Part shown: in pieces, positions 8,797 through 17,509 of the stretch | Numbering within the stretch: position 1 is the first letter of the stretch | Layout of the letters: each line of letters opens with the position of its first letter | Sequence record: OZ035817.1 | Origin: Vectrevirus DIJ06P1 | Reading direction: 5' to 3' (one strand) | DNA length: 44,766 nucleotides | Made by a program: the position numbers and the translations under genes | Notes under the pieces: generated by a model | What the model was told of the DNA's origin: nothing | Database searches by the model: none | Seen by the model: only the letters and a program-made list of their open reading frames with translations

Positions 8797-9461
8797 CCAA
8801 AGTCAAAATTTTGATGTAGGCGTGTGTCAGCTCTCTCGCCCTCGCCCTCGCCGGGTTGCCCCCATAGGGTGGCCTGAGGGAATCCGTCGAAGACGGGTAG
8901 GGCTGATGTACTCCTTCGCTAGTACAAGGGAGGCGGGGAATGCCTAGGAAGCGCTAGGGCACGCCTTAGTATTGGACAAGGTGATTGCCTTAGTGAAGCC
9001 TCTTAGTACATTCCTGAGGCCATTCAGGGCGTTTATGAGGCATTGACAGGGTGGATGGGTGTGGGCTATCTGTTCGTTTCGCTACGCTTCACTCACTGCT
9101 CCTCACTTCGTTCGTCGCTGCGGTAGCCTGATGTGTACCTTAGGTTATTACTTGATGGATAGCTTAGGTTATAGCTTAGTGACCTACCTTAGTTATAACC
9201 TTAGTGCATAGCTTAGTATCAGCTTAGTAGTGTACCTTAGTAAGTCTTAGTGTCTTCTCTTAGTGATTGCACATGCAAGCATGTAAGATGCCATTAGGTC
9301 GCGGTCGGTAGACCGCTAAAGAAGGAGAGTAGTAATAAGATGCAGTAGGAGGAACACCAGAAGCCTCGCCAACCTAGCCTATCCTAGCTCTGTATCTATT
9401 GCTTTTCCTTAGTCTCACATGATAGACAACCTATCTTATTCCTAGTGATGATAACTTAGTG

Positions 9462-9490
9462 TTGACAAGATAATCTTAGTGTAATACTAT
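9462..9490 (+). promoter_or_regulatory. candidate host sigma70 early promoter
   Basis: TTGACA, 17-nt spacer, TACTAT; upstream of the first early ORF. Confidence 0.45.
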
Positions 9491-9562: not shown

Positions 9563-9575
9563 GCTCTTTAACAAT
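9563..9575 (+). repeat. GCTCTTTAACAAT 13-mer, copy 1 of 3
   Basis: Exact 13-mer repeated at 10108 and 10320 in early non-coding leaders. Confidence 0.6.
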
Positions 9576-10107: not shown

Positions 10108-10120
10108 GCTCTTTAACAAT
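10108..10120 (+). repeat. GCTCTTTAACAAT 13-mer, copy 2 of 3
   Basis: Exact repeat, about 60 nt downstream of the 10046 promoter. Confidence 0.6.
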
Positions 10121-10319: not shown

Positions 10320-10332
10320 GCTCTTTAACAAT
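10320..10332 (+). repeat. GCTCTTTAACAAT 13-mer, copy 3 of 3
   Basis: Exact repeat, about 100 nt upstream of ocr. Confidence 0.6.
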
Positions 10333-10428
10333 TTGGATGGTAGCTTCTTAGTCTGGATAGGTTAAACCTAGGAGATTCTCTTGAGTCTCCTATAATGTAA
10401 CCTAACTAACTAAATGAGGATTAATAAC

Positions 10429-10788
10429 ATGGCTATGTCTAATATGACTTACTCTCAGGTTTACAACAACGCTCATGCTGCATTAGTTGAACGTATCTGG
10501 AATGATGCTATTGATTGTATTGATAACGCGCATGATGCAATCCATGATGTGGCGGATAGTGCTGTACCAATCTATTATGCTGACATCTTCTCCGTGATGG
10601 CGAGTGAAGGAATTGATCATTTCTTCGAAGACTCCGGCCTGATGCCAGACACTAAGGATGTAACGGTAGTATTGCAAGCCCGTATCTATGAGCAACTCAC
10701 AATTGATCTATGGGAACGTGTTCAGTATATGATTGTTGAATACATCAACTCCGCCGAATATTTAGAAGAAGAAGAAGAGGAAGAATAA
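10429..10788 (+). CDS. ocr: Ocr-like DNA mimic (anti-restriction, T7 gp0.3 homolog)
   Basis: ATG at 10429 after GAGGA; [42 protein letters not shown] and [15 protein letters not shown] match T7 Ocr as I recall it; poly-Glu C-terminus. Confidence 0.85.
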
Positions 10789-10893
10789 TATGGAAAAGCT
10801 ATACAACTTTATCTTTTCAGACGGTGTAACCCTGAAGTGTTCCCTACGATTCGCACAAATTCGTGAGGAAGTACTAGGCACTACATACAAACT

Positions 10894-10918
10894 ATTTAGC
10901 TGACACTATAAGAGAAGG
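10894..10918 (+). promoter_or_regulatory. variant phage-promoter-like sequence
   Basis: ATTTAGCTGACACTATAAGAGAAGG; position +1 is A rather than G, so function is uncertain. Confidence 0.35.
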
Positions 10919-10979
10919 CTTAACAAGGCGTTGCTACGGTAGCGCCTGATTAAACTTTCACTTACTAGGAGTTAAGACT

Positions 10980-11207
10980 ATGGATTTAGATAGCATCATT
11001 ATGGCATTTGCTCTTATTGGCTTAAGCTGGTGCTCCTATCACCTTTACCGTGAGTTCTTATTTGATAAAGCTAAACGCAAACTAAGAAAGGAAGGCGGTA
11101 ATTACCTTTGTGTAAGAGATGGGCTTGTAGAATACATTGCACCTAACGGCACGGAATGCGCCATTAGCAAAGATGCATTTATAGAAACGTGGCATTACAT
11201 CAAGTAA
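10980..11207 (+). CDS. hypothetical early protein with N-terminal hydrophobic segment
   Basis: ATG after AGGAG; 75 aa. Confidence 0.5.
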   Translation: MDLDSIIMAFALIGLSWCSYHLYREFLFDKAKRKLRKEGGNYLCVRDGLVEYIAPNGTECAISKDAFIETWHYIK

Positions 11208-11241
11208 CTAGCCTATAGCCTACCTGAGTGGGCTATGTGAT

Positions 11242-11264
11242 ATTTACTTACACTATATAAGGTG
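11242..11264 (+). promoter_or_regulatory. variant phage-promoter-like sequence
   Basis: ATTTACTTACACTATATAAGG; degenerate around +1. Confidence 0.3.
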
Positions 11265-11270
11265 ACTATT

Positions 11271-12155
11271 ATGACTACTGAAAACACCCTCCTGTCTGTT
11301 CGTGAAGCTGCAACCGCTGAGATCAAGCAACACTTAGACAATATCGGCACTTCTTACATCAAAGTTGGCGCTTGTCTTAATGAGTTACGCGGTGACTTTG
11401 AAGGTCAAAAAGACTTTTTGGCTTATGTAGAATCAGAATTTGGAATCAAGAAAGCACAATGTTACAAGCTGATGAGTGTAGCCCGTGTCTTTGAAGGCGA
11501 TGATCGCTTTAAAGGCGTGGCGATGCGTGTAATGCTGGCGCTTGTTCCTTTCGCTGATGAAAATATAATCATGGAGAAGGCCGCAGAACTCGCCGCAAAT
11601 GGCAAGCTGGACACTAATGCCGTAAACGCCCTGATTGAACCTAAGAAAGAGTCAAAGGCCGAAACGGTACAATCTAAGGCTGAGACAGTAAAACCGCAGG
11701 AGAACGCGACTGAGTCCGCAGAATTACAGGAAATGCAAGCGCCGCAGGTAGTGCCACCCGCGAGCGAGCAGGAGGCCGACGAATCAGCACCTTGGGAAGA
11801 GGAAAGCAAGCCGGAAGCGCCTAAGGCCGCGCCACTGGATAACACGGCTAACACCGAGAATGCCACTATTGCTGGTCTGCTGGCACAAATTAAAGCACTG
11901 ACCGAGCAATTACAGGTAGCTAATGACCGCATTGCCTCCTTAAGCAGCGCACGCGAAAGCAAGAAAGCAGCCGCACCTATGCTGCCGCAGTTCAAATCTT
12001 CCTGCTTCTACGCTCGCTTAGGCTTGAGCGCTGAGGAGGCAACGAAGAAAACAGCAGTTAACAAGGCACGCCGCGAACTGGTTAAGCTAGGCTATGGTGA
12101 AGGCCATGAAGCATGGGCCTTAATCTCTGAGGCAGTAGAAGAATTAACTAAGTAA
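11271..12155 (+). CDS. hypothetical early protein with Ala/Glu/Lys-rich low-complexity linker
   Basis: ATG at 11271 (GTG at 11262 possible); folded N-terminal part, long low-complexity middle, helical C-terminus; sits where T7 has host-takeover genes but shows no kinase motifs. Confidence 0.55.
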   Translation: MTTENTLLSVREAATAEIKQHLDNIGTSYIKVGACLNELRGDFEGQKDFLAYVESEFGIKKAQCYKLMSVARVFEGDDRFKGVAMRVMLALVPFADENIIMEKAAELAANGKLDTNAVNALIEPKKESKAETVQSKAETVKPQENATESAELQEMQAPQVVPPASEQEADESAPWEEESKPEAPKAAPLDNTANTENATIAGLLAQIKALTEQLQVANDRIASLSSARESKKAAAPMLPQFKSSCFYARLGLSAEEATKKTAVNKARRELVKLGYGEGHEAWALISEAVEELTK

Positions 12156-12218
12156 CCTTATCGGTGGCATCTTCTTAGGTGTCACCTATTAAGGTTTCTT
12201 TCACTAGGAGTAAACAAG

Positions 12219-14846
12219 ATGCAAGACTTACACGCTATTCAACTTCAACTTGAAGAAGAAATGTTTAACGGCGGTATCCGTCGCTTTGAAGCGGACCAAC
12301 AGCGCCAGATTGCATCCGGTAATGAATCAGACACGGCATGGAATCGCCGCTTATTGTCCGAGTTAATTGCGCCAATGGCTGAAGGTATTCAGGCATACAA
12401 GGAAGAGTATGAAGGTAAAAGAGGCCGTGCACCGCGTGCATTAGCTTTCATTAACTGCGTAGAAAATGAAGTGGCAGCGTATATCACGATGAAAATCGTT
12501 ATGGATATGCTGAACACGGATGTAACCTTGCAGGCTATAGCCATGAATGTAGCTGACCGCATTGAGGACCAAGTACGTTTTAGCAAGCTGGAAGGTCACG
12601 CCGCCAAATACTTTGAAAAAGTTAAGAAGTCACTTAAGGCAAGTAAGACTAAATCATATCGCCATGCGCACAACGTAGCGGTAGTGGCTGAGAAGTCAGT
12701 AGCTGACCGTGACGCTGATTTCTCCCGCTGGGAGGCATGGCCTAAAGACACCTTGCTGCAAATTGGGATGACCTTGCTTGAAATCTTAGAGAATAGCGTA
12801 TTCTTCAACGGGCAACCTGTCTTCCTCCGCACCTTGCGCACTAATGGCGGCAAACATGGTGTTTACTACCTACAGACTAGTGAACACGTAGGTGAGTGGA
12901 TAACTGCATTTAAAGAACATGTAGCGCAACTTAGTCCAGCCTATGCACCTTGCGTTATTCCTCCGCGTCCGTGGGTATCACCCTTTAACGGTGGGTTTCA
13001 TACTGAGAAAGTAGCAAGCCGTATTCGTCTGGTAAAAGGCAATCGTGAGCACGTCCGCAAGCTGACCAAAAAGCAAATGCCAGCGGTTTACAAGGCTGTT
13101 AACGCTTTGCAGGCGACTAAGTGGCAGGTTAATAAAGAGGTTTTACAGGTTGTGGAGGACGTTATACGTCTAGACCTCGGCTATGGTGTACCTTCCTTTA
13201 AACCACTCATCGACCGTGAGAACAAGCCAGCTAATCCGGTGCCGTTAGAGTTCCAGCACCTGCGAGGCCGTGAACTGAAAGAAATGCTTACGCCGGAACA
13301 ATGGCAAGCCTTTATCAACTGGAAAGGTGAATGTACTAAGCTGTACACCGCTGAAACTAAGCGCGGAAGCAAATCGGCGGCAACCGTTCGCATGGTCGGT
13401 CAGGCCCGTAAATATAGCCAGTTCGACGCAATCTACTTCGTGTATGCACTGGACAGCCGCAGCCGTGTATACGCGCAATCTAGCACACTCTCACCGCAAT
13501 CAAATGACTTGGGCAAGGCCTTGCTCCGTTTTACCGAAGGGCAGCGTCTTGATAGCGCTGAGGCGCTTAAGTGGTTTTTGGTGAACGGGGCTAATAACTG
13601 GGGTTGGGATAAGAAAACTTTTGACGTGCGCACTGCTAACGTGCTGGATAGTGAATTTCAAGACATGTGCCGCGACATTGCAGCCAACCCGCTGACCTTC
13701 ACTCAATGGGTGAATGCTGATTCCCCTTATGGCTTCCTTGCATGGTGCTTTGAATATGCGCGTTATCTGGATGCACTGGACGAAGGAACGCAAGACCAAT
13801 TCATGACGCACCTACCCGTCCATCAAGATGGTAGTTGCTCTGGTATCCAGCACTATAGCGCGATGTTACGAGATGAAGTAGGTGCGAAAGCAGTAAACCT
13901 TAAGCCTTCTGACTCCCCTCAAGATATTTATGGCGCGGTTGCGCAGGTTGTTATCCAGAAGAATTACGCCTACATGAATGCAGACGACGCAGTGACTTTC
14001 ACATCCGGAAGCGTCACACTTACAGGTGCAGAACTGCGTAGCATGGCTAGTGCGTGGGATATGATAGGAATCACTCGCGGATTGACCAAAAAGCCCGTAA
14101 TGACACTACCTTATGGCAGCACACGTCTAACCTGCCGTGAATCAGTGATTGATTATATCGTTGATTTAGAAGAAAAAGAGGCCCAACGGGCTATTGCGGA
14201 AGGGCGTACCGCCAATCCTGTACACCCTTTTGATAATGACCGTAAAGACAGCCTGACACCTAGCGCAGCTTATAACTATATGACAGCTTTAATCTGGCCT
14301 TCTATTTCGGAAGTGGTTAAAGCTCCTATAGTGGCAATGAAAATGATTCGTCAGCTTGCCCGTTTCGCAGCTAAAAGGAATGAAGGCTTAGAGTATACCC
14401 TGCCTACTGGCTTCATCTTGCAACAAAAGATTATGGCTACTGATATGCTCCGCGTATCTACTTGCTTGATGGGAGAAATCAAGATGAGTCTACAGATTGA
14501 AACGGACGTAGTAGATGAAACGGCAATGATGGGCGCTGCTGCTCCTAACTTTGTGCATGGTCATGATGCCAGTCACCTTATCTTAACGGTCTGCGACCTT
14601 GTTGATAAAGGGATTACATCTATCGCAGTAATTCATGATTCTTTTGGCACTCATGCAGGCCGTACAGCCGATCTACGCAACAGCTTAAGGGCAGAAATGG
14701 TGAAAATGTACCAAGGCCGTAATGCACTGCAAAGCCTGCTAGATGAGCACGAAGAACGCTGGTTAGTTGATACAGGAATCCAAGTACCAGAGCAAGGGGA
14801 GTTTGACCTTAACGAAATCTTAGTTTCAGACTATTGCTTCGCATAA
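12219..14846 (+). CDS. single-subunit DNA-directed RNA polymerase, SP6 type
   Basis: 875 aa; hallmark blocks [24 protein letters not shown] and IHDSFGTH; very close to SP6 RNAP as I recall it, consistent with the SP6-type promoters. Confidence 0.95.
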
Positions 14847-15302: not shown

Positions 15303-15521
15303 ATGGCTAAATACAGAATCAAGACCTGTTTAAATAGTCACGGGCAAGAGTTCTACGTAGTGCAACGTAAAGTATTAGGCTTAATATGGGTCACTTGTAT
15401 GATGCCTATTGGCTATACTGATACAGAGGCTATCTTCTGCACCGAAAGGGATGCAAAGAAGTTTATCTCTAAGCGTAGAAAAGCTGACTCTTACCAACCT
15501 AGAATTATTAAGGTGAACTAA
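15303..15521 (+). CDS. hypothetical protein
   Basis: 72-aa ORF; stop overlaps the primase-helicase start. Confidence 0.45.
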   Translation: MAKYRIKTCLNSHGQEFYVVQRKVLGLIWVTCMMPIGYTDTEAIFCTERDAKKFISKRRKADSYQPRIIKVN

Positions 15522-17509
15522 TGGCTATTATTAATAACATCCCGTGCCCTGCCTGCCAGAAGAATGGGCACGATAAATCCGGCAATCATCTCATGATATT
15601 TGATGATGGTGCTGGCTATTGTAACCGTGGTCACTTCCATGATAATGGGAAGCCCTATTACCATAAGCCAGAGGGTGGTATCGAGATAACCGAATTGCCT
15701 ATTACTGGCAATATCAAATATACACCTTCTCAATTCAAAGAAATGGAGAAGGAAGGGAAGATAAGCGACCCTAAGCTACGCGCCATCGCTCTTGGTGGTA
15801 TGCGTATGAAAGACCGTTGGGAGGTCATGAATGAGCAAGAAAGGGCAGAGCAAGAAGCAGAGTGGAAACTTGATGTTGAATGGTTCCTCACGCTTAAGCG
15901 TAAGAACCTTGTTTCCAGACACATTCGCGGCGACATTTGCGCATTGTATGATGTACGTGTTGGGCACGATGAAGAGGGTAGAGTCTCACGGCATTACTAT
16001 CCACGCTTCGAAAAAGGTGAGCTAGTAGGCGCTAAGTGTCGTACCTTACCTAAAGATTTCAAGTTTGGACACTTAGGTAAACTCTTTGGTATGCAAGATC
16101 TTTTCGGTATGAATATTTTGTCTCACGTGTTAGACAAGGGAAGACGAAAGGATTGCTTGCTTATTGTGGGTGGGGAACTGGATGCACTAGCAGCGCAGCA
16201 GATGCTCCTTGATTCTGCCAAGGGTACTAAGTGGGAAGGTCAACCTTACCATGTATGGTCTGTTAACAAAGGGGAGTCTTGCCTTGAAGAGATTGTGCAG
16301 AACCGTGAACACATCGCCCAATTCAAGAAGATTATTTGGGGCTTCGATGGGGATGAGGTAGGGCAGAAGCAGAACCAGCAAGCGGCTCGCCTGTTCCCTG
16401 GCAAATCCTATATCCTTGAATATCCCTCTGGTTGCAAAGATGCTAACAAGGCATTGATGGCTGGCAAGGCTAAAGAATTTGTAGATGCATGGTTTAATGC
16501 CAAGTCATCTGATGAAGTCTTTGGTAGCCAGATTAAATCTATCGCATCTCAAAGGGATAAGCTCAAGGCTGCACGTCCAGAGCAAGGACTATCATGGCCT
16601 TGGCCTAAGCTGAACAAGGTAACGCTAGGTATTCGTAAGAACCAGCTTATCATTGTAGGTGCAGGGTCTGGTGTAGGTAAGACTGAGTTCCTTCGTGAAG
16701 TAGTTAAGCACCTCATTGAAGAACACGGTGAATCTGTAGGCATCATTTCTACAGAAGACCCGATGGTCAAGGTGTCCCGTGCTTTTATCGGCAAGTGGAT
16801 TGATAAGCGTATTGAGTTACCGCCAACCAACGACCCGAAAGAAGACGGATACCGTGAGGTGTTCGACTACACCGAGGAAGAAGCTAACGCCGCCATTGAT
16901 TATGTAGCTGATACAGGTAAGCTGTTTGTAGCTGACCTAGAGGGTGACTATTCGATGGAAAAGGTAGAGCAAACTTGCCTAGAGTTTGAGGCTATGGGCA
17001 TTTCTAATATCATCATTGATAACTTAACGGGGATTAAATTAGATGAGCGTGCTTTTGGTGGGAAGGTTGGTGCACTTGATGAATGCGTCAAGCGGATTGG
17101 TACTATCAAAGACCGACACCCGGTTACTATATTCCTTGTATCACACCTTACACGTCCTCCGGCAAACCGTACCCAACACGAAGAAGGTGGCGAAGTTATC
17201 CTTTCTGACTTCCGAGGCTCAGGAGCTATCGGATTCTGGGCATCTTACGCCTTGGGGATTGAGCGTAATACAAGAGCTGAAACGCTTGACGAAAGGACTA
17301 CCACGTACATCTCATGTGTCAAAGACCGCGACCAAGGTATCTACACTGGAACCAAGGTCATGCTTAAGGGTGACATTCAAACCGGACGTTTAATGGAACC
17401 ACAAGCCCGTACTAAGTCATTTGATACAGGTGAAGCAAGGCAACAAGAAGTACCAGATTTACCGGACACTATAGAAGAGACTAACTTCGATGAAGAAAGT
17501 GAGTTCTGA
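15521..17509 (+). CDS. DNA primase/helicase (T7 gp4-like)
   Basis: N-terminal Zn finger CPACQ...CNRGH; Walker A GAGSGVGKTEF; acidic C-terminal tail ending DEESEF. Confidence 0.9.
   Translation: MAIINNIPCPACQKNGHDKSGNHLMIFDDGAGYCNRGHFHDNGKPYYHKPEGGIEITELPITGNIKYTPSQFKEMEKEGKISDPKLRAIALGGMRMKDRWEVMNEQERAEQEAEWKLDVEWFLTLKRKNLVSRHIRGDICALYDVRVGHDEEGRVSRHYYPRFEKGELVGAKCRTLPKDFKFGHLGKLFGMQDLFGMNILSHVLDKGRRKDCLLIVGGELDALAAQQMLLDSAKGTKWEGQPYHVWSVNKGESCLEEIVQNREHIAQFKKIIWGFDGDEVGQKQNQQAARLFPGKSYILEYPSGCKDANKALMAGKAKEFVDAWFNAKSSDEVFGSQIKSIASQRDKLKAARPEQGLSWPWPKLNKVTLGIRKNQLIIVGAGSGVGKTEFLREVVKHLIEEHGESVGIISTEDPMVKVSRAFIGKWIDKRIELPPTNDPKEDGYREVFDYTEEEANAAIDYVADTGKLFVADLEGDYSMEKVEQTCLEFEAMGISNIIIDNLTGIKLDERAFGGKVGALDECVKRIGTIKDRHPVTIFLVSHLTRPPANRTQHEEGGEVILSDFRGSGAIGFWASYALGIERNTRAETLDERTTTYISCVKDRDQGIYTGTKVMLKGDIQTGRLMEPQARTKSFDTGEARQQEVPDLPDTIEETNFDEESEF
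17457..17480 (+). promoter_or_regulatory. SP6-type phage RNAP promoter inside the 3' end of the primase-helicase gene
   Basis: ATTTACCGGACACTATAGAAGAGA, full consensus match. Confidence 0.6.

Follow-up and report, generated by a model that had tools for sequence, protein, structure and literature searches.

In bacteriophage T7, the slot before the RNA polymerase (RNAP) gene is occupied by gene 0.7. The SP6/K1-5-like phages, which are widely used in phage therapy and biotechnology and whose takeover of the host is poorly understood, carry no gp0.7 gene at this slot. Among viruses, J-domain proteins are known from the polyomavirus T antigens and from Rki of phage RB43, and the HPD motif of a J-domain is needed for stimulation of the Hsp70 ATPase. 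KorB, ParB, SopB and Spo0J are partition or repressor proteins. The early protein described below occupies the T7 gp0.7 slot and is predicted to resemble the latter two groups in its domains.

The window analysed here is the whole 44,766-nt sequence of Vectrevirus DIJ06P1 (OZ035817.1). An earlier note on this DNA had placed a 294-aa early protein at 11271-12155, just upstream of RNAP where T7 encodes gp0.7. Its coordinates are exact, the gene is conserved and the position is as described: 63 nt separate the end of the ORF from the next gene (12219-14846), which encodes a T7-type single-subunit RNAP (PF00940, E=2.7e-90, plus PF14700). The start codon ATG 11271 follows the Shine-Dalgarno-region sequence AAGGTGA. 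It was preferred over GTG 11262, at which the mechanical ORF list opens the frame, because this GTG falls inside the Shine-Dalgarno sequence and because a length of 294 aa is shared by nearly all of the 120 homologues among the matches listed. The ORF is a genuine gene, being present at full length in 213 of 50,697 phage records (tblastn) and matching PHROG 4571 (E=3.5e-131, labelled "unknown function"). Its nucleotide identity to Vectrevirus phages, K1E among them, is 93-97% (K1-5, 94.9%; LF31P3, 97.3%), and the K1-5, K1E and LF31P3 records name it "gene 6 / gp6, hypothetical protein". The SP6 orthologue is gene 6 too, with 65% amino acid identity and an equivalent genomic place. Based on these nucleotide identities and the position of the SP6 orthologue, the window is a circularly permuted K1-5-like (Vectrevirus, K1-5/K1E-like) genome, and the ORF product is assigned as the orthologue of K1E/K1-5/SP6 gp6 of the SP6 supergroup. 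The anti-restriction protein Ocr is encoded separately in the window at 10414-10788.

Searched alone against Pfam, NCBIfam, PADLOC and PDB sequences, gp6 gave nothing significant, and only the family-level analysis succeeded. An AlphaFold2 (AF2) model of gp6 was built with a 130-sequence family alignment (mean pLDDT 83). The resulting features of the gene are as follows.

11271-12155, + strand: gp6 coding sequence, 294 aa, stop codon included (ATG 11271, stop 12153-12155)
11298-11636, + strand: N-terminal six-helix domain, residues 10-122, DUF3102-type, with the predicted fold of a ParB/KorB DNA-binding domain
11406-11492, + strand: putative helix-turn-helix, helices 46-57 and 61-74 (AF2 helix boundaries)
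11643-11846, + strand: predicted intrinsically disordered acidic linker, residues 125-192 (AF2 pLDDT 46-56)
11778-11807, + strand: short linear motif DESAPWEEES, an acidic run followed by P-[F/W]-[D/E] (from shuffle enrichment)
11847-11972, + strand: long amphipathic heptad-repeat helix, residues 193-234 (a single helix in AF2)
11973-12152, + strand: C-terminal domain, residues 235-294, P-x-L-P-Q-F followed by a three-helix J-like domain
12093-12101, + strand: Y275-G276-E277 at the HPD position (hmmsearch and hhalign column mapping)

This layout agrees with the folded N-terminal part, the Ala/Glu/Lys/Pro-rich linker and the helical C-terminus that the earlier note had read from the sequence: residues 10-122 are modelled as confident helices (pLDDT >95), the linker is composed of 21% E, 16% A, 12% P and 10% K, and helix 193-234 together with the confidently helical residues 239-293 makes up the C-terminal part. 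Nor did the domain searches clearly match gp6 to any structural or replication protein, the outcome that the note had named as evidence against its reading. The HMM and structure searches it had proposed led at family level to DUF3102, a ParB/KorB-type fold and the J-like C-domain. The product gp6 is best described as a predicted non-enzymatic modular protein, in which a DUF3102/HTH-fold domain is followed by an acidic linker with its motif, a heptad helix and a J-like domain.

Kinase motifs are lacking, as the note had also stated. No kinase model of Pfam or NCBIfam matched, T7 gp0.7 compared with gp6 by BLASTP gave E=29, and the gp6 family profile compared with gp0.7 by hhalign gave a probability of 1.6%; a kinase identity was therefore rejected. 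The genome paper of Vibrio phage AS51 equates the ORF between its gp6 homologue and RNAP with T7 gene 0.7. This ORF (locus L009, 1988-2884), although labelled "protein kinase", matched nothing in Pfam at E<=0.1.

The homologues detected by tblastn come from phages of Escherichia, Klebsiella, Salmonella, Proteus, Erwinia, Pectobacterium, Vibrio, Pseudomonas, Aeromonas, Shewanella, Marinomonas and other hosts. The records inspected fall in Molineuxvirinae, Colwellvirinae, Gajwadongvirus and one unassigned Autographiviridae phage, and among 1.84 billion cluster representatives, scanned exhaustively with HMMER, only 132 related clusters were found. The gp6 family is confined to non-T7 Autographiviridae. 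Synteny was inspected in K1E, SP6, Vibrio VEN, Vibrio AS51, Pseudomonas Njord, E. coli ECBP5, Aeromonas AerP_220 and a 45-kb metagenomic phage contig whose family member is 30% identical to gp6. At every one of these loci, the RNAP gene lies 0-2 small ORFs downstream of the gp6 homologue. A place kept across subfamilies and from Vibrio to Pseudomonas hosts fits a core function, in regulation or takeover, that is directed at a conserved target, and it is unlike the pattern of a typical variable or accessory anti-defence gene. Thus the broad conservation and fixed position of gp6 favour a conserved target and disfavour a typical accessory anti-defence gene.

In about 60% of the family representatives (P0129-P0235), the DUF3102 domain is preceded by 60-220 additional residues, an extension missing from the Vectrevirus and SP6 proteins. 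Two family members weakly match AbiJ_NTD5. Several homologues bear odd GenBank names, namely "andolysin/endolysin", "late transcription factor VLTF-4" and "periplasmatic protein" (KY295891-93, NC_047806/7, KY295893, ON624112, OQ729741). No domain match backs any of these labels, and we rejected them and attribute them to low-complexity matches. The literature searched on DUF3102, phage J-domain proteins, SP6-like early proteins and gp6 contained no functional study and gave neither a function nor a domain composition for gp6; for DUF3102, it yielded nothing beyond proteomics tables. The genome papers of phiA318/AS51 and UAB_Phi78 list the gp6-family protein as unknown.

The transcriptional setting of gp6 was also analysed. 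The phage promoter core ACACTATA occurs 13 times in the window against 1.85 expected, always on the + strand, and the consensus of the 13 copies is ATTTACTGGACACTATAGAAG. The elements concerned are listed below.

130, 2667, 4343, 10903, 11250, 14947, 17466, 18157, 21903, 22672, 23818, 26930 and 32134, + strand: ACACTATA promoter cores
10893-10915, + strand: variant phage promoter-like element upstream of gene 5
11214-11237, + strand: hairpin between gene 5 and gp6, 10-bp stem and 4-nt loop (from a scan for terminator-like structures)
11240-11262, + strand: variant phage-RNAP promoter-like element ATATTTACTTACACTATATAAGG directly upstream of gp6

Both variant elements deviate at -9/-8 and carry A or T, not G, at the predicted +1, so that the promoters before genes 5 and 6 may have a lower strength or a different timing. 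The element at 11240-11262 is identical in K1E and degenerate in SP6, where the gene 5 copy is retained. The hairpin keeps its position in K1E and SP6 and might serve RNA processing or act as a weak terminator. Sigma-70-like promoters (TTGACA) are located at 9462 and 10046. Given these and the phage promoter-like elements upstream, gp6 and the RNAP gene are probably transcribed first by the host RNAP from the 9462 and 10046 promoters and then by the phage enzyme.

Other repeats were also observed. The sequence GCTCTTTAACAA, the boxA antitermination sequence of rrn operons, occurs in three exact copies in the early region (9563-9574, 10108-10119 and 10320-10331). Two of these copies follow the sigma-70-like promoters at 9462 and 10046 at a distance of 60-80 nt. 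Phages K1E (3 copies), SP6 (2), Vibrio VEN (2), Pseudomonas Njord (2), AS51 (1) and T7 (1, at 813, just after promoter A3) also have this 12-mer in their early regions. These copies suggest host-RNAP antitermination on early transcripts across the T7 supergroup. A dense array of the pentamer CTTAG spans 8965-9260 and extends to about 9580, with units such as ACCTTAGT and AGCTTAGT. In 650 bp, 17 copies were counted where about 0.9 would be expected, and the array adjoins the presumed left end of the genome. K1E has 19 and SP6 17 copies of CTTAG in the first 1.5 kb, and T7 instead has 11 copies of CCTAAAG. Finally, the leaders of gene 5 (10949-10982) and of the RNAP gene (12188-12221) are 34 nt long and 74% identical. 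Their common pattern is ATTAA..TTTC..T.ACTAGGAGT.AA.A..ATG, a translation-initiation region that both genes have.

Our preferred reading, held tentatively, is that gp6 is a dimeric DNA-tethered adaptor or regulator that acts in the early-to-middle transition and docks a conserved protein partner. In this scheme, gp6 would dimerise through a leucine zipper, the dimer would sit on DNA via the helix-turn-helix, and the J-like domain and linker motif would serve as docking surfaces for the conserved partner during the switch from host-RNAP to phage-RNAP transcription. The role is deduced from these three predicted properties, namely the zipper dimer, the HTH on DNA and the docking surfaces.

The N-terminal domain belongs to a recognisable family. 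DUF3102 (PF11300) was matched by 41 of 130 family representatives on the equivalent N-terminal region (best E=9.1e-10), and the distant member P0250, linked to gp6 by phmmer (E=8e-4), reached 28.4 bits against a gathering score of 24.4. The gp6 sequence itself has no match to DUF3102 in Pfam, and the DUF3102 and DnaJ assignments of gp6 are accordingly drawn from family profiles and the predicted structure. An N-domain profile gave no meaningful match to PDB sequences, and only 6 near-identical fragments in a 5.8-billion-protein index.

Fold comparison was more informative. The N-domain model matched KorB (scores 7.1 and 6.6), Spo0J (6.0), ParB (5.9), SopB (5.3 and 5.2), P1 ParB (4.8) and VirB (4.6). 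These are 8 of the top 15 fold matches, and the full-length model yielded the same ones; their scores are only moderate, with a similar value for Raf1 (Rubisco accumulation factor). The model has the fold of the central HTH DNA-binding domain of ParB/KorB, and from this match the candidate recognition helix of gp6 would be KKAQCYKLMSVARVF. Within it, K61 is present in 119 of 126 family sequences, and Q63, Y65, K/R66 and K69 are conserved family-wide. The exposed residues K61, Q63, K66 and K69 are kept across phages of very different hosts. The net charge of the domain is -5 in gp6 (family median, -3), a mild acidity that is unusual for a DNA-binding domain. Taking the predicted fold into account, DNA binding by the N-domain is plausible. 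The CTP-binding ParB/Srx domain is absent, as no Pfam match was found and only nine residues precede the HTH domain; gp6 was therefore not filed as a ParB family member.

These results bear on the possibility that gp6 is a KorB-like repressor or autoregulator, whose HTH dimer would bind early-phage operators or host promoters and shut off host-RNAP transcription once the phage RNAP has been made. It would then replace T7 gp0.7/gp2 functionally, and the J-like domain would merely be an oligomerisation or partner module. The best structural matches being KorB, a global repressor, and VirB agrees with such a role, and so does a gene immediately before the RNAP gene where no gp0.7-type kinase is present. 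However, palindromes searched for between 8400 and 12300 comprised only promoter, boxA and terminal-array repeats, with no candidate operator or parS/OB-type site and no repeated palindromic operator in the early region. Moreover, the recognition helix is almost invariant despite widely differing promoters and hosts, unlike the usual co-evolving pairs of operator and repressor, and the N-domain is acidic. We consider a KorB-like repressor unlikely, and a DNA-tethered adaptor remains our preferred reading.

The C-domain starts with a near-invariant P-x-L-P-Q-F, after which come three helices but no helix IV. Helices I-III, with II and III forming an antiparallel hairpin, are superposable on solved J-domains, so the model has the J-domain fold. 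At the sequence level, 13 of 130 family members matched PF00226 (DnaJ) at E<=0.01; gp6 itself had no match, and none of the 130 members searched reached the gathering score (best 26.0 bits against 27.8). When a profile of 76 family C-domains was run against all PDB sequences by hmmsearch, the matches were mostly J-domain chains, with a best E-value of 2.4e-4. An hhalign comparison of the family with a small hand-typed J-domain alignment, counted as supporting only, gave 96.1% (E=3.6e-9, 49 columns). Together they indicate profile-level sequence homology of the gp6 C-domain to J-domains.

The catalytic motif is a different matter. At the HPD position gp6 has Y275-G276-E277, which sits within the clade-specific loop GYGEGHEA, and its II-III loop is 6 residues shorter than that of DnaJ. 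HPD is absent from 75 of the 76 aligned family C-domains, and one aligned member (P0145) has NPD. Because this defining feature was tested for and is lacking, the domain is named "J-like" and gp6 was not filed as a J-protein. The helix-II signature A-[YF]-R-x-L is kept, with R268 near-invariant (at least 90% conserved across phages of very different hosts). A distant homologue outside the 76-sequence alignment, P0249, has a canonical FHPDK (TSTFHPDKV). It is a 276-aa protein on a 1.5-kb Logan contig (locus L008) with the same DUF3102-zipper-J layout as gp6. P0249 may represent the ancestral, functional J-protein state, and its FHPDK suggests that the gp6 lineage descended from a functional J-protein and then lost the catalytic motif.

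A genuine co-chaperone, in which the J-like domain would dock host DnaK and bring it to DNA-bound complexes or a client, has parallels in polyomavirus T antigen, E. coli CbpA and phage RB43 Rki. The supported J-domain homology and fold, the retained helix-II signature with its near-invariant arginine, and the FHPDK of P0249 and NPD of P0145, which suggest functional J-protein ancestry, all fit this idea. Against it stand the change of HPD to YGE in gp6 and its absence in nearly all aligned members, the shortened II-III loop, the missing helix IV and the sub-threshold PF00226 scores. As HPD is absent, canonical activation of the DnaK ATPase by gp6 is unlikely, and a true co-chaperone appears quite doubtful. 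A J-like module repurposed as a protein-binding domain, by analogy with Tim16/Pam16, seems more likely. It is improbable, in our estimate, that the N-domain does not bind DNA at all and that gp6 is instead a protein-protein scaffold on host RNAP, phage RNAP or the replisome, with the DUF3102 fold as its protein-binding surface.

Between the two folded domains, the linker and the long helix would supply a second docking surface and the dimer interface of the adaptor. Family linkers are not conserved in sequence and are conserved in length, mostly 65-110 aa. The motif DESAPWEEES contains the sole aromatic residue of the gp6 linker, its W. Acidic-P-[F/W]-[D/E] is found in 42 of 126 family linkers, whereas composition-preserving shuffles gave 4.2 on average and 11 at most, an enrichment of about ten-fold; a strict form is found in 38 of 126 (1.2 expected from shuffles). 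It is a genuine short linear motif limited to part of the family, as two-thirds of the members are without it. Variants in several homologues read EDEDDIPFD, DEDDSVPFD and DEEDDTPFD, which we take to resemble the tip of E. coli SSB (DDDIPF). Many homologues contain PFDTGA, which is D-T-G-A-like and raised the idea of an aspartic protease. This idea was rejected because the segment around the motif is disordered, is not conserved and has no folded domain, and because gp6 itself reads PWEEES. In the same window, the primase-helicase (15521-17509) has an acidic C-terminal tail, EETNFDEESEF, whose last residue is Phe, as in the T7 gp4 tail. That the P-W-E-E motif of gp6 could compete for the basic docking site of a primase-helicase-type tail is pure speculation.

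In helix 193-234, nine of the 12 a/d positions of the heptad register are L, I, A or V, and bZIP and other coiled-coil Pfam models match homologues in this region. The helix is thus a probable dimerising leucine zipper, and dimerisation of gp6 is deduced from the heptad pattern only.

The acidic linker is the basis of another alternative, namely that the linker or its motif imitates DNA, or else the acidic tail of a protein (e.g. the C-terminus of SSB), and sequesters a host nuclease, repair factor or immune sensor. The linker is strongly acidic indeed (net charge -9; family median about -10 per 100 residues), the homologue motifs look SSB-tip-like, and the gene is early and adjoins ocr. But the SSB tip uses its free C-terminal carboxylate, and the gp6 motif is internal and the family mostly lacks it. 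PADLOC, a library of defence and not of anti-defence proteins, had no family matching gp6 at E<=10, and the gene is conserved and syntenic across subfamilies as typical accessory anti-defence genes are not. We regard such a decoy as rather improbable, and the label of host-shutoff or anti-defence factor attached to gp6 by the earlier note is a guess. It is likewise a long shot that gp6 represents a new class of takeover protein, a DNA-tethered HPD-less J-domain decoy that captures or misdirects host DnaK/DnaJ or another conserved hub (e.g. readers of SSB-tail-like acidic motifs) on the nucleoid or the incoming phage genome, as the SP6-supergroup substitute for T7 gp0.7/gp2.

For the DNA-tethered adaptor we count the confident AF2 domains, DUF3102 in the family, YGE in place of HPD, the clear zipper register, the enriched motif, conservation of K61, Q63, K66, K69 and R268, conservation in 213 records, synteny with the RNAP gene and the upstream promoters. 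Counted against it are the missing candidate operator, the net charge of -5 of the N-domain, the lack of any Pfam match of gp6 itself and the presence of the motif in one-third of the family only.

Although annotated merely as hypothetical, gp6 is among the few early genes conserved across several Autographiviridae subfamilies. A domain assignment would improve the annotation of at least 213 matching phage records. The ParB/KorB-type HTH and degenerate J-domain predicted here turn a former ORFan into a protein with a testable domain architecture.

Compared with known systems, gp6 differs from each of its relatives. KorB, ParB, SopB and Spo0J share only 10-16% sequence identity with the gp6 N-domain; gp6, whose fold starts at residue 10, is without their N-terminal ParB/Srx CTPase domain, and it is located on a virulent T7-supergroup phage and not at a partition locus. 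DUF3102 covers the same N-terminal region in the family members that match it, with gp6 alone unmatched, and since DUF3102 has no known function, membership explains nothing mechanistically. Relative to DnaJ/Hsp40, gp6 has YGE for HPD, a shorter II-III loop, no helix IV and sub-threshold Pfam scores. The J-domain is N-terminal in DnaJ, CbpA and T antigen, whereas the order is reversed in gp6, where the J-like domain is C-terminal. With Tim16/Pam16 and other HPD-less J-like domains, gp6 has only the general J fold in common, and their cellular context is wholly different. T7 gp0.7, a protein kinase with a role in host transcription shut-off, occupies the same slot as the last early gene before RNAP, but it has no detectable sequence or profile similarity to gp6, which has no kinase domain, and the two folds are unrelated. 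The building blocks of gp6 are known domain types, while their combination, and a degenerate J-domain in a virulent phage, is as far as we found undescribed in the literature searched. With these predicted domains, gp6 would add a bacterial-virus case of the DNA-binding-plus-J-domain design known from the polyomavirus T antigens.
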